A stretch of DNA of 64,000 bases from an uncultured Gammaproteobacteria bacterium (GCA_963764725.1 CAVXTM010000011.1:224001-288000), one strand, 5' to 3'; shown: positions 2,834 through 29,430, counted from the first letter of the stretch. Translations and numbers: made by a program. The notes: a model not told the origin generated them from the letters alone.

Positions 2834-2845
2834 CACGCTACCGCC
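2834..2845 (-). promoter_or_regulatory. ops element (RfaH loading site) #2
   Basis: Minus strand GGCGGTAGCGTG, an exact match to the ops consensus. Intergenic, 100 nt downstream of rfaH paralog 2. Confidence 0.9.
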
Positions 2846-2944
2846 ATGCGAAGCACTTACGCGTTTCGCGAAAACGGTACTCGATTTGTAGCTTAACCCT
2901 CACTACATCTGCAGCGTGTCGCGGGTAACTGCCCCGCTGACGTC

Positions 2945-3445
2945 CTACGCCCTGTGTAGCAGATCGCGGTCGACGCTGATGTAGTTTTTCCTGCCGAGCA
3001 AATTAAGTAAAATAACCACGCGTTCAGGGCCGGTTTCGGCTTCGAAGATAGCGTCCACGCCAGACATGGGCCCAGCATCAATCACGACCTCTTCTCCAGG
3101 CGCAATTGCAGGCGCCTTGTCAATATGTCGGCCGTCAGCGCGGTCGGCGCTATGCCTCAGCGACTCGACGATGTGATCATCCACCAGGGCCAACTCGTCC
3201 GCGAAGCGCACGAGCTTGGAAACGCCGGTTGTGTACCGGATCGGACCCGTATTATCACAGCCAAGAATCAAGCTCAAAAACAAGTAACGCGGAAACAGCG
3301 GTTCAATGCACTGCCTCCGCCGTCCCCGCTGCCGCCGGGGCTCGGCAATAAGAGGCAGATACACGTCGTAGCTTTGGCGTTCCAGGTTCTCTTCCGCGAC
3401 TCTTTCTTGTCGCGGTTTCGTACAAACAGCGTACCACTGCTTCAT
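2945..3445 (-). CDS. rfaH: Transcription antiterminator RfaH (NusG paralog), copy 2
   Basis: MKQWYAVCTKPRQERVAEENLERQSYDVYLP...EPLFPRYLF...KOW domain. Its ATG overlaps the upstream stop (ATGA). Confidence 0.9.
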   Translation of the reverse strand: MKQWYAVCTKPRQERVAEENLERQSYDVYLPLIAEPRRQRGRRRQCIEPLFPRYLFLSLILGCDNTGPIRYTTGVSKLVRFADELALVDDHIVESLRHSADRADGRHIDKAPAIAPGEEVVIDAGPMSGVDAIFEAETGPERVVILLNLLGRKNYISVDRDLLHRA

Positions 3446-4437
3446 GCGCACGACCGCATACCCTTTTGTGACAGTCTCGTCTGCCCTGCACGCTCGTTTG
3501 ACCACCAGGTCACCAGCCTGCGCAGACCTTCTTCCAACGAGACCTGCGTTCTAAAGCCGAGCAAGTGCTCCGCCTTGCTAACACCAGCCAGCCTCCTCGA
3601 GACAGTGTTAACTTTTCGAGCAGGACCGTATTCTGGGGCGAGGGTCACGCCCATCACGCAGCCAAGGGTTTCGGCTAGCTCGTTCAGACTCGTTTCGGTT
3701 CCGCTGGCAACATTGATGACATCGTCGGTGATGGACGACTTGGCCGCCTCTAAGTTCGCCCTCGCCACGTCGTCCACAAACACAAAGTCCATGGTCTGCG
3801 TACCGTCGCCGAGAATCAAACAGGGTTGGCCTTTCGCCAAACGCTCCATCCATCGAATCATTACCTCGGTGTATACCCCAAACGCATCCATCCGAGGGCC
3901 ATACACGTTGAAGTAGCGTAGCGCCACATAATTCAACCCATACATCTCGTAAAAGCTGCGCAGAAGGCCCTCGCTATACAACTTGATAGCCCCATAGATC
4001 GTCCTATTATCGTAACCATGATGTGTTTCAAATGTCGGGAATTCCTCGGCCTGTCCATAGATGGAAGCCGAGGAGGCAGCAACAACACGCTTGACCTTGG
4101 CTGCGACCGCAGCCTCGAGAATATTTAATGTACCCGTGGCCAGGACATCATGCGCCAGCCGCGGGTCTTCCGCGCACTGGGTGATACGGATCGCGGCTTC
4201 GTGGAAAACAATGTCAATGCCTTCCATGACCTTCCGCACCAGACTCGTGTCGCGAATATCTCCCTCCACAATGGTCACCCTGCCGCTGGCCATAGCCGGT
4301 GCGATATTCTGCCGCCTGCCGCGAGTGAAGTTATCCAGGACGACAATTTCCTGAACACCGTCGGCGACCAGTTGGTCGGCAATATGAGACCCAATCAGTC
4401 CTGCACCACCCGTTATCAATGCTCGTCTATGGTCCAC
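3442..4437 (-). CDS. NAD-dependent epimerase/dehydratase (extended SDR)
   Basis: ITGGAGLIGSH, YGAIK (YxxxK), LRYFNVYGP. Confidence 0.92.
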   Translation of the reverse strand: MDHRRALITGGAGLIGSHIADQLVADGVQEIVVLDNFTRGRRQNIAPAMASGRVTIVEGDIRDTSLVRKVMEGIDIVFHEAAIRITQCAEDPRLAHDVLATGTLNILEAAVAAKVKRVVAASSASIYGQAEEFPTFETHHGYDNRTIYGAIKLYSEGLLRSFYEMYGLNYVALRYFNVYGPRMDAFGVYTEVMIRWMERLAKGQPCLILGDGTQTMDFVFVDDVARANLEAAKSSITDDVINVASGTETSLNELAETLGCVMGVTLAPEYGPARKVNTVSRRLAGVSKAEHLLGFRTQVSLEEGLRRLVTWWSNERAGQTRLSQKGMRSCA

Positions 4438-4606
4438 GCTACCTCTCCTTTCTAGGGCTTATTTCTGTCGTTCTCCCGCACATTACGCCATCCGTGGCAC
4501 TAAACCGGGCTGGCACATCAGCGATGTTCTGGCTTTTGCCCTGGTCACCTGGCGTGCGGTTCTAAAGGATGGCCTCAAGATCGGCGTTCTAATCATGCGT
4601 CCAGTC

Positions 4607-6199
4607 TTAAGGGACCGAAGATGAGAAACCGAATGGCGCGAGCAGCCGCTGTATAGGGCGCGGAATGCGGTCCGGGGAGATGAGAGTGAGCAGAACTCGA
4701 ATCGAATAAACACTACTCAGAATCACCGCCAATGTTCCGACGCCGGTCGCCAACAACGAGGGTAGCGCATAGAAGCCGCAGAACACCACCGTGATCAAGG
4801 TGAGGCAAAGCAGGCCCGTTTTTCTGTTCGCGGCCGACCAGCGAAACCCGCTGAGTCGCCGAACGATCGGGTAGATCAGAAGTCCGTGGAAAACATAAGA
4901 TCCAAAGAAAGCAATGCCGGCGCCGTTCAAACCGAACGATGTCACACATATCCACGCGAGACCGACGTTGACGACCGTCCAAGCCAGTTCGGTCCAGAAA
5001 AAGAGTTTTTGCGCGCCTTTTGCCAGGATAATGAAGCCCATCGGCCAGGTAATCACGCGGAGCGTCATTCCAAGGCATATCCAACGCAGGATTCCCACCG
5101 CCGGATCGAATTCGGCGGTATAGAACAAAGCGATTACCACGGGTGCAAATGTGAGGGTGGCTATCACACCCGGACCCGCCAACAGCAGGCTGACTCTGCG
5201 CCTGTTCGTTCACCAATCGGTTGCACTCGGTATTGTCCTTGGCGACGGCGGTCAAGCGGGGATAAAAGTCCGCTCCCATTGCCTGCAGAATGAACCCAAC
5301 ATACAGCCCGCCCAGAGTCCACGCCGATTGATAGAATCCGGCTGCTTCGAAACCGACCATGCGGAGCACAATGATGCGGACCGCGTAGGCGGCCCCCATC
5401 GTCAGAAGCCCACTTGCCATGAATGCGAAGCCGAGCTTCAACAGTGCGGCTGCTTCCTGCCCTGACTTGGGACGCCGTCATTGAAGGCGTCTGGATCTGT
5501 ACCTTCCGGCTGTACCACCATGAGGTGATGATCGTCATCGCGGCAACCGCTACGAGCGATGGCACCACCCCCTCTTCGCGCAAGGAAATACACCAGGGGG
5601 ATGCTGATGATCGTGCCGAAGAGTGTACCCAGTACCCCCATCTTGGCGAGATCAGAGATGCGCCGCATTCCTTGGATCAACGCCCCTTGACCGGCGGATA
5701 CACAACGGAAAAACACAGCGACTGACAGCAGGGCTACGGCCGCGGCGTGTTGATCGCTGCCAAACGTCACGCTGGACACCTGTCTGGAAAACACGACCAG
5801 TAAAACAGCGCCCAATATTCCGAGGACGATCGATGTTCGTCGCAGCACCATGGCGGTTCGCGCGATCCTCTCTGTGTCGCCCGAACCGACTGCTTCGGCA
5901 ATCTGGCGCACGCCACTGCTGTTGATGCCCATTCCGGCAATGCTCTGAGCAAGGTCGACGATCGATCCGTACAGGCCCATCAATCCGACCCCGGCCGGAC
6001 CCAGCAACACCGCCATAGCCTTGGTACGAACGATTCCAATTGCGACGTTCAGCACCGACGAGCCGCCGATCAATGCCGAGGACTTCAGAATCTGGCCGTA
6101 GGTATGCCTCTCAGCCGTGGCCACCTCTGCCGCCTGAGGCATATCTCGTAGCGAGGGAGCCGAAACCGGATTGGCCACGCTAGGCGGCGTCACTCCCAC
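4607..6199 (-). pseudogene. wzx: Wzx O-antigen/polysaccharide flippase broken by three +1 frameshifts
   Basis: One continuous flippase sequence split over ORFs 5438-6199, 5164-5583, 4713-5441 and 4607-5182. Single extra bases near 5584, 5464 and 5196. Confidence 0.85.
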
Positions 6200-7442
6200 G
6201 CTTCAGTCGCCTTCCACACGTACGCCGTGGCTCCACAGCGAAATCATCAATTGCCTGCTCATGCTTGGAAAAATTCCTACCGCACGCATCGATTCTGTTA
6301 GGTCCTAGGACCGTTTGGTAATCACCACGCTTCCCGTTTGTATACTGAGCTTCGATCCAGCCATGATAACTGCCATCCATCACGCCTCGCCACCACGCCT
6401 CATTGCCGAGGTACCAGTCGACGGTCTTCTTGAGCCCAGTCTCAAAGGCCTCTTGTGGCTGGAAGCCGAGTTGCTTTTGGATCCTTTCCGCATTGATCGC
6501 ATAGCGGCGGTCATGGCCCGGACGGTCTTTGACAAACTTGATCAATGACTGCGCGCCAATGCCCTTTCCCGCCGGCGAGTCGGGGAAACGTTGGTGCAAG
6601 CTGCCGTCACGGACAAAGGCCTCGTCTAATAAACGGCATATCGCGCTTACCGAAGCAATATTCGTACCCTCGTTCTGCCCGCCTATGTTATAGGTTTCCC
6701 CACCTACACCCCGCTCCAGTATGCATTCGATTCCCCGGCAATGGTCTTCGACGTACAGCCAGTCGCGTACGTTCATACCATCGCCGTATACGCAGATTGG
6801 TTGGCCGTCAAGAACATTGATGATGGTCAGCGGGACGAGTTTCTCTGGGAAATGATAGGGCCCATAGTTATTCGAGCAGTTGCTAATGGTGACTTCAAGA
6901 CCATAAGTTCGGTGATAGGCACGGACCAGGTGATCCGAGGCGGCCTTGCTGGCCGAATAAGGGGAGCTCGGATCATAGGGAGTAGTCTCCTTGAACGCGG
7001 GCGCAGTTGCAGACAAAGAGCCATACACCTCATCTGTGGACACGTGATGAAAACGATGCCTTACCGGTCTGCTAACGCCGTCTAACCAAACTCCCTTGGC
7101 CGCTTTCAAGAGGGTGTGAGTCCCAACGATGTTGGTTTCGATAAATGTATCGGGGCCGAGGATGGAGCGATCGACATGCGACTCGGCGGCGAAATGCACG
7201 ATAGTATCGATACGCGCTTCGCGTAGCAGACGCTCGACCAGGGTCTGGTCACCTATGTCGCCGCGTACGAATTCGTAATTATGGTTCGAGGCGATGGGTT
7301 TCAGGCTCTCAAGATTGCCCGCGTAGGTCAGCGCATCGACAACGATAATGCGGTTTTCGGGGTAGCGCTTTATCCAGTAGTGGACGAAATTCGCGCCGAT
7401 AAAACCCGCGCCACCGGTGACTAACAGTTTGCGATTATTCAT
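6180..7442 (-). CDS. rmlB: dTDP-glucose 4,6-dehydratase
   Basis: VTGGAGFIGAN, HFAAESHVDRSI, HVSTDEVYG, YSASKA, DRPGHDRRY. Confidence 0.96.
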   Translation of the reverse strand: MNNRKLLVTGGAGFIGANFVHYWIKRYPENRIIVVDALTYAGNLESLKPIASNHNYEFVRGDIGDQTLVERLLREARIDTIVHFAAESHVDRSILGPDTFIETNIVGTHTLLKAAKGVWLDGVSRPVRHRFHHVSTDEVYGSLSATAPAFKETTPYDPSSPYSASKAASDHLVRAYHRTYGLEVTISNCSNNYGPYHFPEKLVPLTIINVLDGQPICVYGDGMNVRDWLYVEDHCRGIECILERGVGGETYNIGGQNEGTNIASVSAICRLLDEAFVRDGSLHQRFPDSPAGKGIGAQSLIKFVKDRPGHDRRYAINAERIQKQLGFQPQEAFETGLKKTVDWYLGNEAWWRGVMDGSYHGWIEAQYTNGKRGDYQTVLGPNRIDACGRNFSKHEQAIDDFAVEPRRTCGRRLKRGSDAA

Positions 7443-7529
7443 GGTTTAATCGAAGGTGAGAGTTCGGCAGAAGCTTGCTCTCACGTTGAGGGACAGGCTA
7501 AGACAGCCAGTGACCGAGCTTCCCTAATT

Positions 7530-8414
7530 TTAATCCTCAATCTCATTAAGATCCGCCAGCATCTTCCTCAATGAGGCGCGCCAGTGCGGCGGAATCGAGC
7601 CTAAGAGTCTCCGCGTTGAGGCATTATCCAACACACTATAGGCAGGACGGCGCGCGGCCGTGGGATAGTCGTCTGTGGCGATCGGTATGACTGGGATAGA
7701 ACGCGATAACAGGCCCAATTGCCGCCCCTCTTCCTGGATCGCTACGGCAAAATCGTACCAGCTGACCACACCCGCATCGGTCCAATGATGAAGGCCCGTG
7801 ATCTCTGGCTTAGTCGCTATAGCCCAGATACACTGGGCCAACCCTCTCGCCCAGGTCGGTGTTCCGATCTGGTCCGCAACGACCCTAATCTCGTCGCGCT
7901 CGCGCATCAAACGCAGCATCGTCTTGACGAAGTTGGTGCCATGACTCGAGTAAACCCATGCAGTGCGCAGGACCACTGCTTGCCCATTGCAGATTTCCAT
8001 CACCGCTCGCTCGCCACTGAGTTTACTCGCGCCGTACACCCCAAGGGGGTTTGGCGGATCATTCGGCTTGTACGGCGCGGAGCCATGACCATCGAACACG
8101 AAATCGGTAGAGATTTGTACGAGCCGAGCACGCGCTGCCCCGGCTGCAGTTGCCACATGAGCGGCACCGGTGGAGTTCACGGCATAGGCCCGCTCCGATT
8201 CTTGTTCGGCCTTATCCACCGCGGTATAAGCGGCGGCGTTGATAATGAGATTTGGGCTGATGGAACGTACCGAATGTCGCATGGCATCCGGGTCGCAAAC
8301 GTCAAGCTCCGCTCTCGTTAAGGCGGTAACCTGCCACTGCGGCGGAGCGGTCCTCACAAGCTCCCAGGTTAATTGTCCACCCCCGCCAGTGATGAGGACC
8401 TTCACGGGAAACAC
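7530..8414 (-). CDS. rmlD: dTDP-4-dehydrorhamnose reductase
   Basis: ITGGGGQL, NAAAYTAVDKAE, STDFVFDG, YGASK, DQIGTPT. Confidence 0.95.
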   Translation of the reverse strand: MFPVKVLITGGGGQLTWELVRTAPPQWQVTALTRAELDVCDPDAMRHSVRSISPNLIINAAAYTAVDKAEQESERAYAVNSTGAAHVATAAGAARARLVQISTDFVFDGHGSAPYKPNDPPNPLGVYGASKLSGERAVMEICNGQAVVLRTAWVYSSHGTNFVKTMLRLMRERDEIRVVADQIGTPTWARGLAQCIWAIATKPEITGLHHWTDAGVVSWYDFAVAIQEEGRQLGLLSRSIPVIPIATDDYPTAARRPAYSVLDNASTRRLLGSIPPHWRASLRKMLADLNEIED

Positions 8415-8950
8415 TCGGCGTCTCTAAACAATAGTCCCGCTGCATCCTTCGCCGAGAGGTGCGGCAACCCGATACCGATTAGCGGCCAAGCAACTCCCAA
8501 CTCAGAATCATTCCAGCGTAAGCACCGCTCGTGCTGCGGTGCGTAGAAGTCGGTACACTTATAGAATACCTCGGCGCTAGCACTCGTCACATAAAAGCCG
8601 TGCGCAAATCCGGCCGGTGCCCATAGCATTTTTTTATTGTCAGCCGAGAGCCATTCGCCCACCCATTGCCCGAACGTCGGGGAGCGCTTACGCAGATCAA
8701 CGACGACATCGTAGATTTCACCAGCGACAACGCGAACAAGCTTGCCCTGTGTCTGTTGGATCTGATAATGAAGCCCGCGCAGCGTGCCTTGTACCGACTT
8801 ACTGTGATTATCCTGGACGAAATTCACCTCGATTGCGTGCTCGGCGAATTTCCGTGCATGCCAGGTCTCCATGAAGAATCCCCGGTGATCGCCGAAGACC
8901 TCGGGCTCAATGATGACGACATCGGGTATGCGTGCAGGCCCGAATTTCAT
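8402..8950 (-). CDS. rmlC: dTDP-4-dehydrorhamnose 3,5-epimerase
   Basis: [30 protein letters not shown]. Confidence 0.96.
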
Positions 8951-9837
8951 GAAAGCGCGCTCTCGTCCAGCACTTGCAGGAGATACTGGCCGTAACCGCT
9001 GTTGCGTAGCGGCTCTGCGAGCCGCCTCAGCTGCCCAGCATCAATGTAATTGAGGCGGTAAGCAATCTCTTCTGGGCACGCGATCTTGAGTCCTTGACGC
9101 TGCTCGATCGTCTCGATGAACTGCGCCGCGGTAAGCAGGCTCTCATGCGTTCCGGTATCCAACCACGCTGTCCCGCGCCCGAGGATCTCGACCTGCAGCT
9201 TGCCGCGTTCCAAGTAACGCGCGTTCACATCGGTTATCTCAAGCTCCCCGCGCGCTGAGGGCTTAAGCTCACGCGCGACGTTGACGACCGCATTATCGTA
9301 AAAATAGAGCCCGGTGACGGCGTAATTCGAGCGTGGATTGGCTGGCTTCTCCTGCAGTCCCATCGCACAGCCACGGTCGTCGAACTCCACCACCCCGTAG
9401 GCCTTTGGGTTTTGCACTCGATAGGCGAAAATCGTGCCTCCGGCTGGGCGATCGTTGGCCTGGCGCAAGGTCTCGGTGAGATCATGGCCGTAGAAGATGT
9501 TGTCCCCCAAGATCAGCGCGCAGGGATCGCCGCCGATGAAATGCCGGCCGATGATGAAGGCCTGGGCCAGCCCATCGGGCGAGGGCTGTTCTGCATAGGA
9601 AAAGCTCATGCCCCACTGGTTGCCATCGCCGAGTAGATGGGCATAAGCCGGCAGGTCGCGCGGTGTCGAAATGATCAAAACGTGACGGATACCCGCGAGC
9701 ATGAGGGTCGATAACGGATAATATACCATCGGCTTGTCGTAGATTGGCATGAGCTGCTTGCTGACTGCATACGTCAGCGGATAGAGCCGGGTGCCCGATC
9801 CTCCAGCGAGCACGATTCCCTTTCGACGTCCGTTCAT
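8947..9837 (-). CDS. rmlA: Glucose-1-phosphate thymidylyltransferase
   Basis: [40 protein letters not shown]. Confidence 0.97.
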
Positions 9838-9865
9838 CTAAGCCCGCTCGCATTCACAAGAGTTA

Positions 9866-10249: not shown

Positions 10250-11338
10250 TTAATGGGCGCCGATGGACTGGATCACCACCTTAACCGTCTTGATTAGGAT
10301 TTTTACGTCAAGCAAAAACGAGCAGCTTCGAATATATTGAAGATCGAGCCTCACCATGTCATCAAAGGACGTCTTACTTCGCCCCTCCACCTGCCAAAGA
10401 CCGGTGATACCGGGTTTTATCTCTAGAATTCGCCTGAGATGCCATGATTGGTATTGCTCAGCTTCGTAAGGAAGGGGTGGCCGCGGTCCAACCAGACTCA
10501 TGTCTCCCCTTAGCACATTGAAAAGCTGTGGAAGCTCATCAATGCTTTTTTTGCGAATGATTCTACCAATCCGGGTAACCCGTGGGTCAGATTGTATCTT
10601 GTACAATGGGTTTATCATGTCCCCTTGATTGATCTCTTCAAGCTTGCCGTTGATAAACTTTGTGATGTACTCTCGGTGGATTCGGTCATCCCCGCTGGAA
10701 TGCATGGATCGAAATTTGTAGAAGGTAAAAGGAACTCCCTTTCTACCCAAACGGATTTGCTTGAACAAAACGGGTCCTGGAGAAGTGGTTGTAATAAGCA
10801 ATGCCGTAATCAATATTACTGGCGACAATATTAGTATTGCAAGCAGAGAACCTACGATGTCAACGCCTCGTTTCAATAGATTCCGAAGCGAGATAGATTC
10901 TGTAGCATCCTCAAGAAAGAAAGGAGAAAGCGTTTCTGGATCCTGTTGTTCTGCTGAGAACCTATGAAAGATCTGATCAGGAAAAGTCGCGGTGACGATT
11001 GAGAAAGGAGGCTTTTCATGTCCGTTAAACAGCTTGCTAACACATTGTTCCGCCCCCTTCTCGGTGGTATCTGGAAAAATTACGCCTATGACATTGTCAT
11101 CGACGTATCCAATGATATCGGTTTCCCGTAGGTATTCCGGAAGCGGGGTTATAAATTCCTCAAAGTTATTCAGCTCATTACTCGTCTTGTTCTCAAAGTT
11201 GATAAGCGCAATAGTCAAAGGGGCCTTGGAGCGCTCTGCCCGGCGCCTCTCAATTCGCAAATGCTTCAGGAAGTAAGGCTTCGGAAGCAGCTTGGTCTGC
11301 AAGGAGCTTATCCTGTTATGTACGCTACGATGCGTCAT
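10250..11338 (-). CDS. Initiating phosphoglycosyl transferase (bacterial sugar transferase) with a degenerate GGDEF-like N-terminus
   Basis: [51 protein letters not shown]. Confidence 0.92.
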
Positions 11339-11464
11339 AGTGTGGTCGTCACGGCGTCACCATCGCGGCTGGAAGCGCGCGTCAAGTCCGAAACTGAAGA
11401 GTCGAGAAGCCCTTGGATTTGGAACTTATTACGATTCCGGCAATGTTGTATAATCCAGTTGAAG

Positions 11465-11479
11465 GCATGGAATGTACCA
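11465..11479 (-). promoter_or_regulatory. Putative sigma54 -24/-12 promoter of the sugar transferase gene
   Basis: TGGTACA-TTCC-ATGC (GG-N10-GC), intergenic, ~127 nt upstream of the ATG. Confidence 0.55.
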
Positions 11480-11492
11480 ATGGCTTGGGTTT

Positions 11493-12677: not shown

Positions 12678-12717
12678 TATCGATAAGTTATCCCTAAATC
12701 CTTTGCGCTCTGGATAA

Positions 12718-13431
12718 TTAGCGTGTACGGTGCGAGGTCTGCCCGACTTCGTGTGCGCCGCGCCACCCTATCACTATGGCTGGAACTCCAGCCACCTTGG
12801 CGTAGTCCGGGACATCGTGCACCACGACAGCTCCGGCACCGACGATAGCACCTTTCCCGATTGTCACACCCGGCAAAATCACCGCGTTAGTGCCAATATC
12901 CGCCCATTCTTTTACCCGAACCGGCTTAATCACCAAGTCGGTATGAATAATAGGCACGTCAAGAGGCAACCCCGTATGAGCCGACCCTAACACTTTTGCA
13001 CCCGGGCCCCAACCAACATAATTCTCGAGGATAAGATCACGAGCGTCGAAGAAACTCTGTGGTCCAATCCAGACGTAGTCGCCTAGCTTACAACTGCCGT
13101 CATACCGTCCTTGAATGTAGGCTTGGCTGCCGATAAATACGCCGCTACCAAGCTCAAATGTTTCAGGATGTTTAAAGCCAACTCCCGGTTCAACGCGCAA
13201 TCCATCGCCGCATACACGGATAAGCGCGCGCCACAATACACGCCGCATGAGGGAGTCAAAGTTACCGTAACCTTGCGAAAACCGGCTGTATAAATTGAGC
13301 AAATCTTCGCGAGTATATTGTTCACGCAATTCACGAGCTAACTCGCAAGCGTACATTGGATCGGGTGCTAGCTTCTGGAGGCCATGGACGGCTTTTACTA
13401 GGCGAGTTCCGACCGAATTATCGCTCGCCAT
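12718..13431 (-). CDS. Hexapeptide-repeat (left-handed beta-helix) acyltransferase
   Basis: IGTNAVILPGVTIGKGAIVGAGAVV...GVPA. Confidence 0.9.
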   Translation of the reverse strand: MASDNSVGTRLVKAVHGLQKLAPDPMYACELARELREQYTREDLLNLYSRFSQGYGNFDSLMRRVLWRALIRVCGDGLRVEPGVGFKHPETFELGSGVFIGSQAYIQGRYDGSCKLGDYVWIGPQSFFDARDLILENYVGWGPGAKVLGSAHTGLPLDVPIIHTDLVIKPVRVKEWADIGTNAVILPGVTIGKGAIVGAGAVVVHDVPDYAKVAGVPAIVIGWRGAHEVGQTSHRTR

Positions 13432-14524: not shown

Positions 14525-14642
14525 GCGTTTAACCCTTCTTTAAAATTCATTTCGCATCTCGCCAGTACCTAGGCTGTAAACCCATCCAGCGACCGCAGAG
14601 GAGATCAATACAACCGTAACTTCCGCTCCTTCGACAGTAATT

Positions 14643-21256: not shown

Positions 21257-21618
21257 TTTGTTCTCCATTTCGTGCTCCAATCCTATCGCCGGTCTTAGGC
21301 GTTGTTGTTTTTCCATAAGCGCTTGCAGTCCTACCACAGGCGCTATCGATGCCTAGTCGTCGTCTCCGTCAGCCACTCCGCTTAACGGAAGCCGAAGTCA
21401 TTAACGTAGGCGGTGGCGTCGAGGCTACTGACCACCATCTGCACCTCTACGCTTCGGTCATTCTGTTGTGCCGTACTACGGCACCTCTCCTTGTGCGGAA
21501 ACATGACGCTATTCCCTTTCTCCGAAATATAAAGCCCTCTGCTAGGGCGCGCACCGAAGGCAGCGGACAATGCTCCAAGCGGCGCGCTGTGCGTACCTGG
21601 TCACCACTCACACCTTCC

Positions 21619-24600
21619 TTACTGATAGGTCACTCGAACCGCTACTCTGTCCAACGAAAAGTCGCGGTCTATAGAGGAAGCCACGTTGATGATGCGAACC
21701 CTGAAATTGGCGTTGGAAAAATCACCCACAGTCCAGGTTCGCCCCCAAGTATTCGTCGCACTACCCAGGAAATATGCAAGCGTCGTCGTAGTCAGGGTTG
21801 TCGTACTCAAGGCAGTCGTCCACGTTGTGCCGCCATTCCAGGAGAGCTGCGCGCACATCCTCGGCGCGCCCGCAGCGCTGTCGACCCTTGCGGCCAGGCG
21901 GACTTCGATACCCCGGATGGCTACGCCACTCGGCACAATGAAGTCGTAGTTGTAGTAGTTGTGCTTGTCCTTGCCCGCGCCGGTACAAGACGTGCCTGTG
22001 CCCGTGCCACTATCGGTGTCGATAGCAAACTGGCTATCCTCGACATAGGCGTTAGCAGGAGCGGCGAACCCGTTGTTGTCGCCGGCACTGCTCGTAACCG
22101 CTGCGTTGGCACTCGGGGACCGGAAGCCGGTATTGATCGGGGGAGCGGTCTGCACGGTCAGCGTAGTGTTCCCCGAGACGGCGCCCGAGGTCGCCGAGAT
22201 AGTCGTGGTGCCAGCGCCCGTGCCCGCCGTTGCCAATCCCGCGCTATTGATGGTGGCCACCGCCGTGTTCGACGAGGCCCAGGTTACCTGAGTAGTTATG
22301 TTCTGGGTGCTGCTGTCGGAGTAAGTGCCTGTGGCCGTAAACTGCTGCGTTGCCGACGTTTGGATCGTCGGATTTGCGGGCGTCACCGCAATCGACGCGA
22401 GTGTCGGGGCGGTCCCTGGAATGAATACCACGTCCACCCAGTAATTGCTGGAGGCGAAGGTGTTGGTCGGGAATCCCCCCGCCCCGTACAGGTACACCCC
22501 GTTGCCCCCACTCACGCCGTTCTGCAGCGCATGCAGCGGGGGGGTGTCGACACCGGTGGTGGTGAAGCCCCCTTCATTGAGCGCGTAGTGCCCGTTAGGG
22601 GCGTGGTACGAAACCACATAGACCGTGTTGGCCGTGATCGCCACCGGGCTCGAGAAGTTCACCTGCTGCCAGCCCGAGGCGGTCTCGTTCGTAAAGGTCG
22701 CCTGCGCTAGCAATGTCCCACCGCTGCTCCATAACTTACCTACATGCGTGCCGGTGTTCGTACTGCCCTTGTAGAACCGCACCCCGCACGCCGTGCCGTT
22801 GACATCCGAGCGGAACTTGACCCCCAACTCCACCGCCGAGGTGTCCGGATCTGCAGCCACCGCCGGAACCGCCGTCGCCGGCCAGATCGTGTTGCCGGTA
22901 CAGGTGGCGGCGGTCGCGGTAGTCGCCGTCGCTATGTTCGAGTAGCCGCTGAAATTAGGCACCGCGTCGGCCGCACGCACTCGATACCGATAGGTCGTGC
23001 CCGGCGTCAGCCCACTGTCCGGATGGCTCGTACCGGCCGGGGTCGCCACTTCGACAAAATTGGTACATCCCGCACCTTGACACCGCTCTACTCGATAACC
23101 ACTGACTCCCACGTTATCGGTTGAGCCCGTCCACGTCAGATCGATCTGCGAGGTCCCTACCGCCGTCGCACTGAGATTGGTCGGATCCGTCGGAGGTGTG
23201 GTGTCCGGAGGGGTCCCACCGCTGGTCGTGAATACCACATCCACCCAATAGTTAGTGGCATTGAACGTGTTGGTCGGGAAACCACCCGCCCCATAGACGT
23301 ACACACCGTTACCCCCGCTCTCCCCGTCTCTCAGGAAATACAAGGGGCCGTTCTGAAAACCGCTGCTCGCGAAATAGTTACTGTCAAAAGCGTAACCTCC
23401 GTTCGGAGCATGGTACGAAGCGACGTAAACCGTATTGGGCGTGATCGCCACCGGCGCGCCGAAGCTCACCTGCTGCCAACCCGAGGCGGTTTCGCTGCTG
23501 AAGGTCGCCGTCGCTAGCTGTGTCCCGGACGCTGTCCACAATTTACCGATATGCGTACCGGTGTTACCGCTGCCCTTATAAAACCGGATGCCGGTGATGA
23601 AACCGCCCAAATCTGACCGGAACTTGACGCCGAGCTCGACGGCATTGGGATCGGACGCCGATGGATTCGCCGGCGTCGAACTGCTAAAGCCGCTACAGGG
23701 GCTAGTAGAGCAAGGTGCCGCTTCGGTCGTGAAAGACCAGGTAAAGTCAGAGACCATCGCATTCCCGCCAGCATCTTTCACTCCTGCCGCTTCACCTTTC
23801 ACGGTAGCCGTATAGATCGTTGACGCTAGTAAATTAGAGCTCGGGTCCAAGGTCGCAATACGAGATGCGCCGTTGTACGTTACCGTAGCGGCAACTAAGG
23901 TGCTTCCGGGTCCGCGTAACTCGAACGTACCGGTTCCGACTGTTCCAGAGTTCATGTCCTCGCTAAAGGTAGCGGTAACGGAATCTGCCTGGCTAACGCC
24001 GCTGGCACCGGCACTCGGAGAATGAGACACCACCGTGGGGGGCGTCGTATCTTGCGCGAAGCTTGCCGCGTAGGCCCCCGACAACGCGGAAACCACCGCA
24101 TAGCTCACGCCCTTGATGACCTCGGTCGTGAACGTAATTGAGCTGCCGTTACGCGTGATTCCTGTGAGAACGCCGGCGGTCAACACGCGAGGCACCAACG
24201 CTTGCAGCCCATTGGCCGCACTGTCCTGGGCGACGCTAAAGCTCAGGGTGTTCCCGCTCCAGGCGAACGTTCCGAACGAGGAGTTGTTGCGGCCATCCAG
24301 CCATGCCAGCATCTGCCGGCTCGACACGATTGGTACACCACGGGTGAGTGCCGAGGCGACCACCGCGTCCGCTACCGGCGATGTATTTAAGTCCGTATGC
24401 GCATTGACGGTATAGGCCCCATAGTAGCCTTCCGGACCCAGCGCCCGGTCCAATAGCGTATCGATCGTAAACGGATATTGCTGGTCCGACTCGTCCGTCA
24501 TCTGCGTGGTGGCATTGTAGACATCGACCAAGGTACCGTTGAGCTGGGCGAACCGCATGGGCATAGCCGAGCCGGTGAACAACCCCGGGCGGTTGAGGAC

Positions 24601-27600
24601 CCAGCCCGGAGGCCAAAAATAATAGTTCGTGTCGAGGCGGATCCCATGATTGAACTGAACGATCGCCCCGGTTACCCAGTCGCTCCACATGATACAGTGG
24701 TGGCGCTGCGTTATCGGCGGAGGAATACTTGGGTAATTACTAGTCCAGTCACTGATTTGTTGGGTATAATCATTCTCAAGCGATGCAGGTGTATAGTTGG
24801 TCGGGCAGTTGGCATTAATGTGCAGACCCACTTCAAAGCCGGCCGCGTTGAAGCCCGCCGCTTCTGCATTAGTCAAGGTCGGCGTATTCGGATATACATA
24901 CGAGGTGCCCCTTACACACTCCCAGTTGGCCACGGAGCAACCGGGCGGGCTTAACGAAATAAACTGATTGAATCGACCTTCGGTCCCCCCATTGCCGTGA
25001 TCGTCACCGGTCATGATGACCACCGCCTTCTCACCACGGGGGAAATACCAAAATCGCGGCAAGGGCTTCCGATCCAGATTCATGTGCAGGATCAGGTTTG
25101 CAAGCAGCCGCTGTTGCTCGTCCGCCTGCGGAATAGCGACCTTGTTCAGGTCTACCCAGTCCGGCTGCGGATCTCCATTGGCGTCACCGAAGAACTTGTC
25201 GTCCGAGCGGATAGGGTCGCTTCCGTCGCGTTCCTGCGCTGCCCACGCGGGGTTGCCCTGCCGCGTGTACACGATGGATGTTGCTAGATCATACGTGAAA
25301 GCCGCCGCCTGGCCGCCATTCGCCCCGATGCTACGCATCGTTACCGCAGGATTCGAGGTGGTTGTCGTCGCGTTAACATAGAGCGTCGCAAGGCTTGAGG
25401 CGCTGTTCAGCGTGTACCGATCCGCCGTACCGTGGAACTGGATGGTCTGGCCGACGATTCCGCTGCCGGGCGATTGGCTCGTATCGACAAGGAGGTAAGC
25501 ATTGGACAATGTAGCGCCTGCAGGGGAGATACCGAGCAGGCCCGAGAGCTGCGGATCGGGTCGCATCGCAATCAAATTGCCACCCGCGTTCACCCAGTCA
25601 GTGAACATCCCCACTTGAGCGACCGAAAGGGGCAAGGGCGCCAGGATGACCGCGTCGTAGCTTGCTAGGGTCGCGGCATTCACTGATGAGATATCGCTCA
25701 CGGAGAATAAATTGAGCCCCTCACTGCGCAGTATCTCCGCGTAGTACTTTCCGAAGGTGGAAGAGGCACCGGTGACAACCAATATGGGCCCGCCCGGTCC
25801 CTGGTTCGGATCGGGCAACTGCGCAGCAGCGCCAGGCACCAACCACTCTAAAACCGCGCCAAAGACCCCTTGCAACGAGAGAGTAGCGTTTCGCCTGGTG
25901 TCTGAATAGGTGCCCCGGCTAGAATCGGAGGGAATGAACAAGCCCAGAGTTTGTGATGCAGCGGAGGGTGCGGCTGAGGAGGACCTATTCTGTTGCAGAC
26001 GTTTAAGCGCTCTTCTTACCCTCAGCTTCTTGCCGGCGGAAACGTCCCACTCCGTAAGATCCTCATCCTCATCTCCCACAAATAAGCGGCCAGTCGGATC
26101 GAATGCAAGCGCATTGATGAATCGGTTGTGTCTCGGAAGGTCCCTACGCAGTTGGCCGCTTGCTACATCCCAGACCAGGATGCGCATGTCTTCTCCCGCA
26201 CTCACCACCGTCTGCCCATTGGGACTGATGGCGACCGCCCTAACGGGCGCCTGATGTCCTAGAAGACTTCGGATCTGTTGTCCGGTCGCTGCATTCCATA
26301 CCTTTACCTGAGTATCTTCGCCGGCACTCACGAGGACACTACCGTTTCGGCTAAAAGCGAGCGCATTCACCTCCTCCGAGTGGCCAAGGAGGGTCTTTAC
26401 AAGCTTGCCCGTCACCATATCCCACAGCAGCACACGGGCATCTGCATCACCGCTGGCCAATTGCTTTCCATCCCCGCTAAAAGCGAGGCTATTGACGAAA
26501 TTGGTATGCCCCAACAGGATCCCAGTTAGTTTTTCGGTAGCCGCGTCCCACAACAGGATCCTGGTGTCTTCGCCCGCGGCTGCGAGGATCTTGCCGTCCG
26601 GACTAGCGGCAATCGTTCTGATGGGATGCTCAGAACCTTGCAACACCTTGCTCTGTGTACCAGTTGTGACGTCCCAGAGCTGGACTTCCGTGTCCCGGCC
26701 GGCACTCACTAAACGGGTTCCACCTGCACCGAAAGCAATCCCAGTGACCCCGGCACCATGATGTGCGGCCAGCGCAAACCGTTCTGATCCGGTGGCATCC
26801 CATAGGCGAACCGCACTGTCTTCTCCGGCACTACCTACAAGCGCCCCGTCCGGGCTTACAGCGAGGGCGGTGATACCTTTCCAATTGCGTGCCCGGGCTC
26901 TCTTACGAGTGCCCCGTAGAGCCAAGTCAGCGACAGCGCGTGTCTGGCTTGCGCTGCTTTGATTTTGGAGTCCTGGATCAATAACAGGGGCCACTTCGGC
27001 AGCAGATGAACTGTTGACGGTATTAAGAGTTTTGCTACTGAAATCGGTAGTCTGGAAAGCCAACGGGTCGGATCCAAAACCCGAAATTTGGTGGGCAATC
27101 CGTTCCACCCCGCCTGCGAGGTCCCAGACTATAACCTGCCCATCGTTACTTACGCTCGCTAAAACTTGTCGATTGGGATTAAAAGCAATCTCGGCAACTA
27201 TGTCCTTATGCCCGACAAAGCGTTGGCGTAGCTTGCCACTTGCCACCTCCCATAATAGGATCTCGCTGTTATCACTCACTCCGGCTAACGTCCTACCGTC
27301 CGGGCTGAATGCAAAACCATGCAAAGCGGCATCGCCCCGGCTCAAGAGGGATAAGCGTTCTTCGCCAGATGTTACATCCAAGAGCTTGACTCGTGCGTCG
27401 ATTCCGCCAGTTGCGAGAATGGTCCCGTCGGGGCTAAAAGCAAGTCCGTTAATGGGGGCACGCTGACCGGTTAGAATTTGTTTATCATCACCGGACTCTA
27501 AGTCCCACACGCTGACGTTAGCCTCCTGGTCTACGCTGGCCAGTGTCATACTAACTGGACTAAACGCAAAACCGGTTACTGCGGTACGGCTAGTAAGAGT

Positions 27601-28245
27601 TACGAGTTCTTGACCTGATGTTGGATCCCATAGCCTGATTCTCTCGTCCTCACCACTACTGGCTAAGATAGTCGCATCCCGGGCAAAGGCGATTCGACTG
27701 ACGGCGTCGCCGCTAGACAATGTCCATCGCTGCGAGCGTGACTTTACATCCCAAATCAAAATCTGTTTGCCATCGGCAACACCGGCCAGGGATTCGCCAT
27801 CAGGGCTAAAGAGGAGGTGAGTAACGATACCGTTAGAGGCACCGCTTAGAATCCCGCGTACCTGTCCGGACGGCATGTCCCACAGTGTGATCGTATCTTC
27901 AAGCACGCAAGCCAGGGTTTTGCCATCTGGGCTAAACGCAAGGTCCGCAACGACCGAACCAAGCGGACCCGGTCCAATCAAACGTTGCTTACCCGACAGC
28001 AAATTCAGCAAAACGATTTGCCCATCATCTGTCGCGCTTGCTAAGGAATTACCATCAGGGCTAAACGCAAAGCGGTCGTGATTCGACCGCGTCACGCTTG
28101 TTGACGATACTGGAAGGATTGTGTTGGGATTTGCCGAGGCAACGTTGACTTCGGATACGAGTGCTAAAACGTAAATTAGCACCACTGTAAACACGAACAC
28201 CGTACCCGTGAGGCTAATTAGCCGGACTATGTGATTCCTTGTCAT
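21619..28245 (-). CDS. Giant exported modular protein: two WD40 propeller blocks, deacetylase-like domain, Ig, 2x DUF4082, FN3, Big_2 and C-terminal domain
   Basis: AGGAGG RBS then an N-terminal hydrophobic segment. Many AFSPDG...LWD repeats; MTGDDHG/EVGLH/TQRHHC; two VELGVKF...NYWVDVVF modules. Confidence 0.85.
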   Translation of the reverse strand: MTRNHIVRLISLTGTVFVFTVVLIYVLALVSEVNVASANPNTILPVSSTSVTRSNHDRFAFSPDGNSLASATDDGQIVLLNLLSGKQRLIGPGPLGSVVADLAFSPDGKTLACVLEDTITLWDMPSGQVRGILSGASNGIVTHLLFSPDGESLAGVADGKQILIWDVKSRSQRWTLSSGDAVSRIAFARDATILASSGEDERIRLWDPTSGQELVTLTSRTAVTGFAFSPVSMTLASVDQEANVSVWDLESGDDKQILTGQRAPINGLAFSPDGTILATGGIDARVKLLDVTSGEERLSLLSRGDAALHGFAFSPDGRTLAGVSDNSEILLWEVASGKLRQRFVGHKDIVAEIAFNPNRQVLASVSNDGQVIVWDLAGGVERIAHQISGFGSDPLAFQTTDFSSKTLNTVNSSSAAEVAPVIDPGLQNQSSASQTRAVADLALRGTRKRARARNWKGITALAVSPDGALVGSAGEDSAVRLWDATGSERFALAAHHGAGVTGIAFGAGGTRLVSAGRDTEVQLWDVTTGTQSKVLQGSEHPIRTIAASPDGKILAAAGEDTRILLWDAATEKLTGILLGHTNFVNSLAFSGDGKQLASGDADARVLLWDMVTGKLVKTLLGHSEEVNALAFSRNGSVLVSAGEDTQVKVWNAATGQQIRSLLGHQAPVRAVAISPNGQTVVSAGEDMRILVWDVASGQLRRDLPRHNRFINALAFDPTGRLFVGDEDEDLTEWDVSAGKKLRVRRALKRLQQNRSSSAAPSAASQTLGLFIPSDSSRGTYSDTRRNATLSLQGVFGAVLEWLVPGAAAQLPDPNQGPGGPILVVTGASSTFGKYYAEILRSEGLNLFSVSDISSVNAATLASYDAVILAPLPLSVAQVGMFTDWVNAGGNLIAMRPDPQLSGLLGISPAGATLSNAYLLVDTSQSPGSGIVGQTIQFHGTADRYTLNSASSLATLYVNATTTTSNPAVTMRSIGANGGQAAAFTYDLATSIVYTRQGNPAWAAQERDGSDPIRSDDKFFGDANGDPQPDWVDLNKVAIPQADEQQRLLANLILHMNLDRKPLPRFWYFPRGEKAVVIMTGDDHGNGGTEGRFNQFISLSPPGCSVANWECVRGTSYVYPNTPTLTNAEAAGFNAAGFEVGLHINANCPTNYTPASLENDYTQQISDWTSNYPSIPPPITQRHHCIMWSDWVTGAIVQFNHGIRLDTNYYFWPPGWVLNRPGLFTGSAMPMRFAQLNGTLVDVYNATTQMTDESDQQYPFTIDTLLDRALGPEGYYGAYTVNAHTDLNTSPVADAVVASALTRGVPIVSSRQMLAWLDGRNNSSFGTFAWSGNTLSFSVAQDSAANGLQALVPRVLTAGVLTGITRNGSSITFTTEVIKGVSYAVVSALSGAYAASFAQDTTPPTVVSHSPSAGASGVSQADSVTATFSEDMNSGTVGTGTFELRGPGSTLVAATVTYNGASRIATLDPSSNLLASTIYTATVKGEAAGVKDAGGNAMVSDFTWSFTTEAAPCSTSPCSGFSSSTPANPSASDPNAVELGVKFRSDLGGFITGIRFYKGSGNTGTHIGKLWTASGTQLATATFSSETASGWQQVSFGAPVAITPNTVYVASYHAPNGGYAFDSNYFASSGFQNGPLYFLRDGESGGNGVYVYGAGGFPTNTFNATNYWVDVVFTTSGGTPPDTTPPTDPTNLSATAVGTSQIDLTWTGSTDNVGVSGYRVERCQGAGCTNFVEVATPAGTSHPDSGLTPGTTYRYRVRAADAVPNFSGYSNIATATTATAATCTGNTIWPATAVPAVAADPDTSAVELGVKFRSDVNGTACGVRFYKGSTNTGTHVGKLWSSGGTLLAQATFTNETASGWQQVNFSSPVAITANTVYVVSYHAPNGHYALNEGGFTTTGVDTPPLHALQNGVSGGNGVYLYGAGGFPTNTFASSNYWVDVVFIPGTAPTLASIAVTPANPTIQTSATQQFTATGTYSDSSTQNITTQVTWASSNTAVATINSAGLATAGTGAGTTTISATSGAVSGNTTLTVQTAPPINTGFRSPSANAAVTSSAGDNNGFAAPANAYVEDSQFAIDTDSGTGTGTSCTGAGKDKHNYYNYDFIVPSGVAIRGIEVRLAARVDSAAGAPRMCAQLSWNGGTTWTTALSTTTLTTTTLAYFLGSATNTWGRTWTVGDFSNANFRVRIINVASSIDRDFSLDRVAVRVTYQ
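22150..22923. repeat. Direct repeat copy B (~774 bp)
   Basis: Matches 17339-18112. Confidence 0.9.
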
Positions 28246-28723
28246 TTTCTTGTTCCTCCTAGGAAGCGGAATGTGTCCATAGTTTTGCGACACCCTTCTG
28301 CTAAATTTAGAGAGCTGATCATTAGGTTGGAAGTTTATTTTGAGGCGGATTGATCCAGACTGCTTCTGGCGGGTGCGGCGCCTTGGGTGGTTTTCTCACA
28401 AAACGCTCCGGATGCGCCGCGTATGCTGCCAATAGCACTGCGCGCCGCGCCCGGATTAGAAACTGTCCTAGTGGCCGCTCAGCGGGAATCTCAGCTTAAT
28501 AGAGACAAATGGAGCATTGCCTCATTATGCGGAGATGCACCCGCAAGCATTGCGTGCTAGCGACAGTTAAAGGTCAACGGGAAAAATTTCTACCGTATGC
28601 CTGCCAGGCCGGGAGGATTAATCAAACGGCGTGCTAAGGAACCTAACCGTCTCTCAAAGCTGCCGGGCGAGACTCGATTGAAAGCAAAACCGTGAACGAT
28701 TTTGAACGAATTCGGTGCGAAAC

Positions 28724-28735
28724 AACGCTACCGCC
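28724..28735 (-). promoter_or_regulatory. ops element #1
   Basis: Minus strand (G)GGCGGTAGCGTT, ~114 nt downstream of rfaH paralog 1, in the long leader of the giant gene. Confidence 0.85.
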
Positions 28736-28848
28736 CTACAAAACGCCTCCGTGTTTCGTATAGCAGGTCCTTCTATAGGTTGTCGACGCTTCTTAGCTAC
28801 TCCGTCGACGGTTGAGGCGGAAAGAAAACGCCTCAGGTACACCTTAAA

Positions 28849-29358
28849 CTAAGCCAAGTCTAGCAGGTTCCGCGAGACCGTCGCAACAGTTTCCCGCCCC
28901 AACATCTTAAGCAGGATCATCACGCGCCCTTCTGCCGATTCACCCCATACGGTCGCCTGCAGATTAGCGAGCGGCCCCTTTTCAATCATCACGGTGTCGC
29001 CCCTCTGGAACGCCAGTCGCTTTTGGTTATGCAGACCGGTACGCGGATCGGCGGTGCTCTTTATAGAGTCAACAACTACGCCGGGAACAATAGCCGGCTC
29101 CTCTGTGAAACGCACGAAATTCTGTACACCGCTTGTATAGCGAACCGGCCCCATGTTGTCATAGCCGGGCCGGAGGCGTATGAACAGATAACGAGGGAAC
29201 AATGGCTCGATGATCTGTACCCAGCGTTCATATCGTCGGCGTTGTTGATAGATTAAAGGCAAATAGACTTCGTAGCCTTGGCGTTCGAGGTTTTCCTCGG
29301 CAACCGTTTCTTTTCTCGGTTTGGTGTGAACAAGGTACCAATTTTTTACGATATCCAT
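28849..29358 (-). CDS. rfaH: Transcription antiterminator RfaH, copy 1 (head of the locus)
   Basis: WYLVHTKPRKETVAEENLERQGYEVYLP...IEPLFPRYLFI...GDTVMIEKGP. Confidence 0.92.
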   Translation of the reverse strand: MDIVKNWYLVHTKPRKETVAEENLERQGYEVYLPLIYQQRRRYERWVQIIEPLFPRYLFIRLRPGYDNMGPVRYTSGVQNFVRFTEEPAIVPGVVVDSIKSTADPRTGLHNQKRLAFQRGDTVMIEKGPLANLQATVWGESAEGRVMILLKMLGRETVATVSRNLLDLA

Positions 29359-29415
29359 ATCTGCCGAATAGCGTTATCCAAAATACTACGGTCGCGTAGC
29401 TTGGCCGTATGCTAG

Positions 29416-29430
29416 GCAAGCGGTATACCA
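29416..29430 (-). promoter_or_regulatory. Putative sigma54 promoter of rfaH copy 1
   Basis: TGGTATA-CCGC-TTGC (GG-N10-GC), 58 nt upstream of the ATG. Confidence 0.65.

Follow-up and report, generated by a model that had tools for sequence, protein, structure and literature searches.

A stretch of 64,000 nucleotides of DNA from an uncultured Gammaproteobacteria bacterium (GCA_963764725.1, CAVXTM010000011.1:224001-288000), here called the window, probably contains two separately derived, locus-linked anti-termination cassettes, each made up of an rfaH gene, a spacer, a 10-bp hairpin, and an ops site, and each heading a long co-directional block of genes. Cassette 1 (rfaH1, hairpin 1, ops1) heads two giant surface-type proteins and sugar-nucleotide genes, and cassette 2 (rfaH2, hairpin 2, ops2) heads about 16 kb of glycosyltransferase and related genes. 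RfaH is the textbook example of a sequence-targeted, fold-switching elongation factor, and its recruitment is known almost wholly from enterobacteria, where it acts in trans. RfaH-ops anti-termination is known; what is new here is a covarying 10-bp hairpin beside ops and the recurrence of rfaH, hairpin, and ops as a cassette. This arrangement of the known system is widespread and, it appears, undescribed; no description of an ops site directly after rfaH was found in the full-text literature, subscription journals and supplements lying outside its coverage.

Two ops sites and the hairpin beside them

Each rfaH gene in the window is followed on the same strand by an ops site (GGCGGTAGCGT), as a first-pass annotation of the window had pointed out. 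From stop codon to G1 the distance is 113 nt in unit 1 and 99 nt in unit 2, which that annotation gave as about 114 and 100. The 11 leading bases of ops1 and ops2 are identical to each other and to those of the Escherichia coli ops. With at most one mismatch the ops word occurs 6 times in the window, with 5.33 expected, and a count across the 4.2-Mb assembly gave 5 exact copies of the 11-mer, about 4.3 being expected from composition; the motif count was therefore dropped as evidence, the word being at chance frequency. It is position, not word frequency, that makes the two sites non-random. The remaining three exact copies of the 11-mer lie inside open reading frames (ORFs) of 357-567 aa, and the only two intergenic copies are ops1 and ops2. 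A covariance model of hairpin plus ops (R2), built from 36 sites of other genomes with the window sites and their nearest relatives (loci L022 and L028) excluded, gave 51.7 bits for the ops2 site and 36.8 bits for the ops1 site in a scan of the whole genome, the next best match reaching 15.8 bits.

The hairpin ends one base 5' of ops G1, and the base of its stem lies 12 nt upstream of ops T11. The pattern TTATGCGAAAC...GTGTTTTGCAG is common to many loci 5' of ops. The hairpin alignment comprises 40 sites, L040 and L042 having been excluded because their first ops-like words were non-canonical (a later model, R1, placed the true site of L042 at +176). From these 40 sites RNAalifold returned, unprompted, a stem ending one base before ops G1 together with the known small GC..GC hairpin of ops itself. 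Within the 10-pair stem 76.7% of 399 cells are paired, compared with 63.1% in shuffled alignments (0/500 reaching the observed value) and 31-53% in slid registers. Nine of the ten stem pairs change on both sides in some sequence, and the covariation score is 0.437, compared with at most 0.264. At one position G-U is the commonest pair, which fits a structure formed by RNA (or by the sense strand), and a stem that covaries without a fixed sequence argues for a structural role and against one in which the sequence is read. In the window, hairpin 1 has a folding energy of -12.7 kcal/mol (z -2.2).

From its placement the hairpin may act on a pause. In hairpin-stabilised pauses, such as the his pause, the hairpin lies 11-12 nt from the RNA 3' end. 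E. coli RNA polymerase pauses at ops C9 and U11, and a G12C change abolishes the U11 pause (PMC5995543). The Bacteroides opsX site is described as containing a nascent-RNA pause hairpin whose effect is enhanced by NusA (PMC11685472). The 12-nt spacing from T11, the his-type pauses, and the opsX precedent together suggest that the hairpin is a pause-prolonging element. Such a helper could matter at ops1, since ops1 has T at position 12 and the E. coli site loses its U11 pause when G12 is changed to C.

The two RfaH proteins

The first-pass annotation also located two RfaH paralogues correctly, as minus-strand ORFs at 29358..28849 (169 aa) and 3445..2945 (166 aa). RfaH1 and RfaH2 share 51% identity (83/163). 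Both match the Pfam NusG/NGN family (73.6 and 71.9 bits, respectively), and for both the best-scoring model is the NCBIfam RfaH model TIGR01955 (cut-off 144.5 bits), which RfaH2 exceeds at 150.7 bits and of which RfaH1 falls about 3 bits short at 141.2. E. coli RfaH chains are their best sequence matches in the PDB (E 1e-18 for RfaH1 and 5e-20 for RfaH2). A census of the assembly, which is 96.9% complete, found these two rfaH genes, one nusG, and no further copy.

Both paralogues retain the equivalents of E. coli K10, R23, Q24, E48, T72, G74, V75, and R138, and at positions 68, 70, and 71 of the E. coli numbering they share P, R, and Y. The arginine at position 70 (R73 in RfaH1 numbering) is invariant in 82 sequences of the clade, in which the E. 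coli contact R73 is unconserved; judged from this pattern, contact with DNA could have shifted to the invariant arginine. The two proteins have the same residue at 10/11 of the E. coli ops-contact positions (residue list from PMC5995543) and therefore give no hint of paralogue-specific recognition. The suggestion that the two ops sites carry paralogue-specific flanks accordingly finds no footing, the first 11 ops bases being identical and 10/11 contact positions shared; in congeners, moreover, orthologues of the RfaH1 type precede the consensus flank that unit 2 has.

AlphaFold2 (AF2) models of both proteins, run with an 82-row alignment, consist of an NGN domain and a KOW-type C-terminal domain. 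The RfaH1 model matches recruited RfaH (8phk_P) over 163 columns with a TM score of 0.70 and matches autoinhibited RfaH over the N-terminal 93-97 columns only. Mean pLDDT (predicted local distance difference test) is 87.6 for RfaH1 and 81.9 for RfaH2, the five RfaH2 models spanning 67.9-81.9. The alpha-hairpin autoinhibited state is not given by AF2 for either paralogue, and the equivalents of E48 and R138 are conserved.

Recurrence of the cassette in related genomes

A first sample consisted of the best 80 of 579 RfaH1 relatives in public genome records, mostly metagenome-assembled genomes (MAGs) of Gamma- and Betaproteobacteria; at least 312 nt were available after the rfaH stop in 72/80 loci. 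A same-strand GGCGGTAG lies within 312 nt past the stop in 27 of these 72. The order described in the first-pass annotation, with the factor gene first and the loading site next on the same strand, is thus a real and recurrent layout. In control scans of the 312-nt stretch the word was found in 0/72 loci on the opposite strand, the reversed word in 1/72 and 1/72 on the two strands, and the word in the upstream stretch in 1/75, with a background of 0.02 per 312 nt. Stop-to-ops distances fall at 47-64 nt in 11 loci, with further groups at 78-138 nt and 156-242 nt. In 13 more loci ops lies 371-943 nt past rfaH, and in 10 of these (L037, L041, L044, L052, L062, L069, L073, L076, L083, and L093) a same-strand ORF of 202-226 aa stands between the two; in the 4/4 scanned it encodes a winged-helix (HTH_24/MarR-like) protein. 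This protein may be the helix-turn-helix (HTH) neighbour that Wang et al. (2020) reported for RfaH cluster CL4 (PMC7593976).

In a second sample, the best 30 loci from 400 evenly drawn genomes of the class, 28 were assessable; 12 of them have a same-strand ops at most 1.05 kb downstream (1 within 300 nt), and none has one downstream on the opposite strand. With model R1 no locus gave more than one site, and every site was on the strand of rfaH; there were 54 matches in 88 sources, about 15 of these in sequences outside the model's training set. In six loci (L024, L051, L060, L074, L088, and L092) the hairpin-ops instead precedes rfaH by about 100-700 nt; this RfaH clade thus includes both orders, among them the one known from UpxY and PrfaH. 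Genome scans of 41 relatives gave 0-2 sites per genome, largely tracking the presence of rfaH; the exceptions are G007 and G009, with a site and no rfaH call, and G023 and G028, with rfaH and no site. Two candidate upstream ops words were discarded: that of L028 lies inside a DegT gene and has no T at position 11, and that of L022 lies 2.3 kb before the stop and is unmatched by R1. In locus L017 (genome G034) a plain GGCGGTAGCGTG occurs 80 nt past an rfaH of a distant family; R1 has no match there and has one on another contig of the same genome.

Genes behind ops were scanned in 9 loci and encode an ABC exporter (2), an epimerase, a nucleotidyltransferase, a UDP-glucose dehydrogenase, a flippase, a GT4 glycosyltransferase, an AsnB-heptosyltransferase fusion, and one protein without a Pfam match. 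The cargo behind ops in these nine loci is surface-polymer genes.

Separate origin of the two cassettes

The two cassettes are of separate ancestry, and RfaH2 is not a local duplicate, as judged from a quick maximum-likelihood tree (91 rows, rooted on the genome's own NusG, with long branches and SH-aLRT, an approximate likelihood-ratio test, as its only support measure) and from the surrounding sequence. RfaH2 pairs with the RfaH of L028, a Methylococcales MAG, at 72% identity and SH-aLRT 98, and the sister group of the two (SH-aLRT 90) is formed by the RfaH1 clade of the genus and a Methylocaldum MAG. The gene order in L028 is GFO, DegT, rfaH, hairpin-ops at +92, and Bac_transf. Nucleotide homology between L028 and unit 2 begins about 20 nt before the ATG, extends over rfaH, fades in the spacer, returns at the hairpin-ops, and then ends. 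Among eight congeners searched (of which G001, G005, and G008 are unpublished genomes), four have a single rfaH, always of the RfaH1 type, and RfaH2 is absent from all eight.

Cassette 1, by the same kind of comparison, occupies a chromosomal site that is conserved in the genus. In G001, G005, and G008 ops lies 114-116 nt past the rfaH stop (the contig of G002 ends too early), the 270 nt before rfaH1, promoter-like match included, are 80-87% identical, and the housekeeping flank of the cassette is syntenic in G008. In G001 and G008 a Bac_transf gene stands between the conserved block and rfaH, abutting rfaH, and glycosyltransferase or epimerase genes lie behind ops; in G005 and in the public MAG locus L022 a WD40 giant gene lies behind ops, as in the window. 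Sequence past ops diverges at once between congeners, and the cassette is therefore the fixed 5' edge of a variable cargo.

In 400 genomes of the class 81 have RfaH and four have two matches, and only the genome studied here has both in one locus. The two genes of G072 are separated by about 3.0 Mb on one contig and those of G331 by 221 kb, and in each of these genomes they are on opposite strands; G115 has its second match, a partial one, on a different contig. A second cassette in the same locus was found in no other sampled genome.

Probable co-transcription and proposed mechanism

It is likely, from the layout of these loci, that rfaH and its ops are co-transcribed. Terminator-like sites occur between the rfaH stop and ops in 2/27 loci, and none was called by the consensus scan in the rfaH1 spacer (28780..28848). 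From the last 100 nt of rfaH to the hairpin, sigma-70-like matches were found in 1/29 segments, compared with 1.6 in shuffled sequence, and in 11 loci just 20-37 nt separate the rfaH stop from the hairpin. An upstream gene on the same strand overlaps or abuts rfaH in 5 of the 24 assessable 'near' loci, as well as in unit 2 and in the congeners G001 and G008. In unit 2 the overlap of the rfaH2 start with the epimerase stop reads ATGA (3445-3442), so that the term used for this gene by the first-pass annotation, 'translationally coupled', can fairly be applied to it. In G001 and G008 the conserved promoter-bearing block has moved 5' of the Bac_transf-rfaH pair, which was counted in favour of co-transcription.

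The mechanism proposed here is modelled on E. coli RfaH. Polymerase reaching ops would pause at the position corresponding to U11, and the nascent hairpin, with its base about 12 nt upstream of that position, would lengthen the pause. RfaH would then bind the exposed non-template ops hairpin and the polymerase, exclude NusG and so Rho, and carry polymerase and ribosome through the long block. With exactly two sites and two factors in the genome, each factor would effectively be dedicated to its own locus, and because rfaH is most probably on the same RNA as its ops, the factor would be made beside the polymerase that needs it. The second cassette would most simply serve polymerases that start inside the cluster or that have lost their factor, and it most simply came with its own cargo, not evolved as a relay.

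Several observations weigh against this account. The first-sample loci are kin, chosen by their likeness to RfaH1, so their counts overstate independence and describe this clade. The promoter and terminator scans are crude consensus matches whose counts are below or about equal to those of shuffles, and are weak hints only. Hairpin 2, at -11.8 kcal/mol and z 0.05, folds no better than shuffled sequence. The Rfam JUMPstart model RF01707 scores 18.6 bits at ops1 and 19.4 bits at ops2, under its gathering score of 35, with the 5' box and ops matched and the model's central hairpin skipped; at the gathering threshold there are no Rfam matches in the whole window. Of the four side chains by which E. 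coli RfaH contacts ops (K10, H20, R23, and R73), two are replaced in both paralogues, H20 by N and R73 by S or T. AF2 gives a beta-stranded C-terminal domain for both (pLDDT blocks 78-87 and 69-77), and AF2 is unreliable for fold-switching proteins. The beta state has been tied to ops-independent action in the account of a 2026 preprint (PMC13015549), which fits poorly with the strict conservation of ops here. Contigs from RNA libraries (four runs) are short, come mostly from relatives, are in many cases less than 90% alike, have joints in WD40 repeats, and do not show transcription. No sequencing run contained half or more of the window's words, and the share was 0.12 and 0.09 in the two runs recorded as RNA. 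In run X19 a single contig spans the rfaH1-ops1 spacer (28769-28825) and allows no inference on transcription; no contig bridging rfaH1, ops1, and the giant gene is listed for the four runs, which leave parts without cover and are uninformative on transcription and habitat.

The first-pass annotation had proposed that the second copy re-loads the complex in mid-operon. On that account one transcript of about 43 kb would run from upstream of rfaH1, the RfaH loaded at ops1 would gradually be lost, and the coupled rfaH2 and ops2 would re-load the same polymerases. The single strand shared by the main ORFs from 29358 to the window start and for 13.5 kb beyond, the coupling of rfaH2 to the preceding gene, and the lack of a strong terminator call in most gaps all agree with this. 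According to a single-molecule study posted as a preprint in 2026, E. coli RfaH is lost from the polymerase in vitro once it has run about 0.9 kbp and does not re-load without ops, which would give a second ops a purpose (PMC13596475). Against a relay, the discussion of the same preprint has RfaH remaining bound across operons in vivo. The cassettes differ in ancestry and the cluster is a mosaic in G+C, congeners manage with one cassette, and 0/80 loci have two sites with 4 kb covered on each side. Of the four genomes with two RfaH matches among 81 that bear RfaH, only this one has both in one locus. The terminator-like hairpin past giant gene 1 (21548..21534) and several gaps of 280-420 nt that could hold promoters might also break up a single transcript. 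A designed relay is thus doubtful: RfaH2 is sister to the L028 protein and absent from the eight congeners, and none of the other three two-RfaH genomes places both genes in one locus. With homology to the L028 MAG limited to rfaH and the hairpin-ops, these findings come close to a case that the first-pass annotation itself named as refuting its relay, namely that unit 2 is simply a separately acquired operon. A relay is unlikely, the comparative data lending it no support, and two dedicated cassettes of separate origin in series are the more economical reading.

A stricter version of the proposed mechanism is obligate delivery in cis, in which the hairpin-stabilised ops pause, 58-125 nt past the stop, would let the trailing ribosome release fresh, non-autoinhibited RfaH in the beta state onto the same polymerase; two such units in series would then be a true relay over 43 kb. 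This we regard as unlikely. Still somewhat less probable is that each rfaH is a transcription unit of its own and that the operon promoter is located either in the spacer or within the 3' end of the gene, with the two factors diffusing and acting interchangeably in trans and their adjacency reflecting co-inheritance. Spacers of 99 and 113 nt could hold a promoter, cross-action is to be expected because the ops cores and contact residues are alike, and the six related loci with the hairpin-ops upstream of rfaH show that the order is not fixed. The spacers themselves speak otherwise, with promoter-like matches in 1/29 segments (1.6 in shuffles), terminator-like sites in 2/27 loci, and 11 loci in which a stop-to-ops distance of 47-64 nt leaves 20-37 nt before the hairpin; in G001 and G008, too, the conserved upstream block precedes Bac_transf-rfaH and does not follow rfaH. 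That the two ops sites are chance words or functionless decayed relics is very improbable: the 11-mer is at chance frequency genome-wide and both Rfam matches are sub-threshold, yet it is contradicted by where the sites lie and on which strand, by the covarying hairpin, and by their recurrence in dozens of loci. Two dedicated cassettes therefore remain the preferred reading of the window.

Layout and gene content of the cluster

The cassettes belong to a co-directional minus-strand cell-surface cluster of about 43 kb (Table 1), in which a block of about 25 kb lies behind ops1 and about 16 kb of the cluster lie behind ops2. The main ORFs from 29358 to the window start are all on one strand, and the same strand runs on for about 13.5 kb past the window, where AsnB-like, GT1, FemAB-like, and methyltransferase genes are joined by four ORFs that match no Pfam family. 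5' of rfaH1 there are about 1.5 kb without a convincing gene, followed by housekeeping genes, namely one for a DnaJ-domain protein, ntrBC-like genes, glnA, and rho. The rho gene (43806-45062, plus strand) lies 14 kb from a cluster whose expression would need escape from Rho, which is probably coincidence.

Table 1. Features of the two cassettes and of the genes around them, in order of transcription; positions are counted from the first base of the window.
Feature	Position	Strand	Evidence and remarks
Conserved non-coding block before rfaH1	29381..29650	-	Sigma-70-like ATGACA-16-TAGCAT at 29436..29409, the only such match of the area
rfaH1, RfaH-like NusG paralogue, 169 aa	28849..29358	-	TIGR01955, Pfam, PDB chains, AF2 model
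Spacer 3' of rfaH1, two stem-loops, no U-tract	28780..28848	-	-23 kcal/mol, z -2.08
Hairpin 1, 10 pairs, stops one base short of ops1	28737..28760	-	Covariation, folding, covariance model
ops1, GGCGGTAGCGTT, T for G at position 12	28724..28735 (28735 to 28724)	-	
Leader, ops1 to giant gene 1, 478 nt	28246..28723	-	Then ribosome-binding site AGGAGG and ATG at 28245
Giant gene 1, 2208 aa: N-terminal hydrophobic segment, many WD40 repeats, two DUF4082	21619..28245	-	Same gene behind ops in public MAG locus L022
Giant gene 2, 1509 aa: DMFA2_C, Big_7, Laminin_G_3, fn3, Big_5, DUF4082, Big_2	16808..21337	-	Orthologue next in G005
Sugar-modification block: hexapeptide transferase, GFO oxidoreductase, two DegT aminotransferases, second hexapeptide transferase, polyprenyl glycosylphosphotransferase	10250..16686	-	Low G+C, 47-53%
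rmlA, rmlC, rmlD, rmlB, flippase in two ORFs, NAD-dependent epimerase	3442..9837	-	
rfaH2, RfaH-like NusG paralogue, 166 aa	2945..3445	-	TIGR01955 over cut-off
Hairpin 2, stops one base short of ops2	2847..2870	-	Covariation, covariance model
ops2, GGCGGTAGCGTG, then clade consensus CCTGAA	2834..2845 (2845 to 2834)	-	
Block behind ops2, first part: GT2, methyltransferase, GT2	1..2703	-	Continues beyond window

The leader behind ops1 is, by alignment, about 217 + 41 nt longer than that of the congener G005, and the part shared between them closes with sequence that may be similar to the C-terminal end of an IS3-type transposase, possibly an insertion-sequence remnant. Both giant genes also lie 3' of ops in the public locus L022, and their products look like surface or secreted proteins rather than polysaccharide enzymes. 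A terminator-like hairpin with a T-rich tail (21548..21534, minus strand) lies 70 nt past the stop of giant gene 1, inside the supposed operon, and the gaps between ops1 and rfaH2 include several of 280-420 nt. The flippase is split (4713-6199, minus strand) into an ORF of 253 aa with a Polysacc_synt_3/WzxE-like N-terminus and one of 242 aa without a family match, with an overlap of 4 nt between the two. A frameshift within one gene, an error of assembly, and a true gene in two parts are all candidate explanations.

The G+C content of the cluster is a mosaic, at 58-64% in the giant genes, 47-53% at 10-17 kb, and 53-59% at 1-10 kb, with 59.4% for the genome. This suggests, on compositional grounds, that the low-G+C segment at 10001-17000 (hexapeptide, GFO, DegT, and Bac_transf genes) was separately acquired. 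The description of the whole as one giant polysaccharide locus finds no support, given that the first 11.4 kb behind ops1 encode two giant WD40/DUF4082/Ig-domain proteins and that the cluster is such a mosaic.

Comparison with known systems and significance

One of the known systems closest to the one described here is E. coli RfaH with ops and JUMPstart (RF01707). The protein family is the same, the 11 leading ops bases are identical, and the site stands ahead of long blocks of surface-structure genes. A stem-loop beside ops was noted in JUMPstart elements by Weinberg et al. (PMC2864571), and in the window a 10-pair stem-loop lies directly upstream of the ops word. In contrast to E. coli, there is here one site per factor, directly behind the factor's own gene; H20 and R73 are replaced, an arginine at position 70 is invariant, AF2 does not give the alpha-hairpin state, and the JUMPstart model stays below threshold. 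For annotation, the cassette marks the 5' edge of variable surface-polymer or giant-protein cargo in many uncultured Gamma- and Betaproteobacteria.

Several other NusG paralogues share features with the cassettes. In Bacteroides, UpxY is likewise a locus-encoded paralogue dedicated to its own polysaccharide operon, and its recruitment site, opsX, is described as a pause together with two hairpins, one a pause hairpin in the nascent RNA and the other in the non-template DNA (PMC11685472). Unlike the sites here, which lie behind the gene, the UpxY site is in the leader before upxY, and an inhibitor, UpxZ, gives a hierarchy across loci (PMC11685472); no UpxZ-like partner was recognised among the genes of the window, and the NCBIfam UpxY model NF033644 (cut-off 100 bits) scores RfaH1 at 86.2 and RfaH2 at 71.5, both below. 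PrfaH of IncX3 plasmids resembles the cassettes in that an RfaH-like factor is co-transcribed with the long operon that it activates and has an ops-like recruitment site (PMC11880322). That site is 5' of the prfaH ATG, which allows the factor to raise its own production (PMC11880322), whereas here ops follows rfaH, and only downstream genes would depend on it. LoaP, with the dfn and mln leader hairpin, is also a specialised NusG paralogue, one whose action depends on pausing in the leader and on a small RNA hairpin there (PMC12691694). LoaP itself binds the RNA hairpin and serves two operons (PMC12691694), whereas the stem here has no fixed sequence; the NCBIfam LoaP model NF033641 (cut-off 125 bits) gives 37.6 bits for RfaH1 and 48.4 for RfaH2, both below.

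Among RfaH proteins at large, Wang et al. (2020) describe clusters CL2-CL8 as neighbouring envelope genes, with CL4 associated with an HTH regulator and CL7 inside exopolysaccharide operons, and in their account the recruitment modes of locus-encoded RfaH-like proteins are unknown (PMC7593976). With factor gene, pause-type hairpin, and canonical ops all standing within about 50-250 nt, the conserved cassette is a clonable test object for such recruitment. The introduction of the 2026 preprint on monomorphic (beta) RfaH homologues states that there is no direct or indirect evidence for regulation in cis (PMC13015549); obligate cis-delivery, if true, would be an extant form of the postulated 'ancestral in-cis RfaH', though an ops-dependent one. 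The monomorphic homologues resemble RfaH1 and RfaH2 in standing beside or inside long lipopolysaccharide or surface operons and in having, by AF2, a NusG-like beta C-terminal domain. They are said to miss key ops-binding residues and to act without ops (PMC13015549), whereas in the loci described here a canonical ops and its hairpin are strictly kept, and the cassette thereby challenges the idea that locus-encoded, beta-predicted homologues work without ops.

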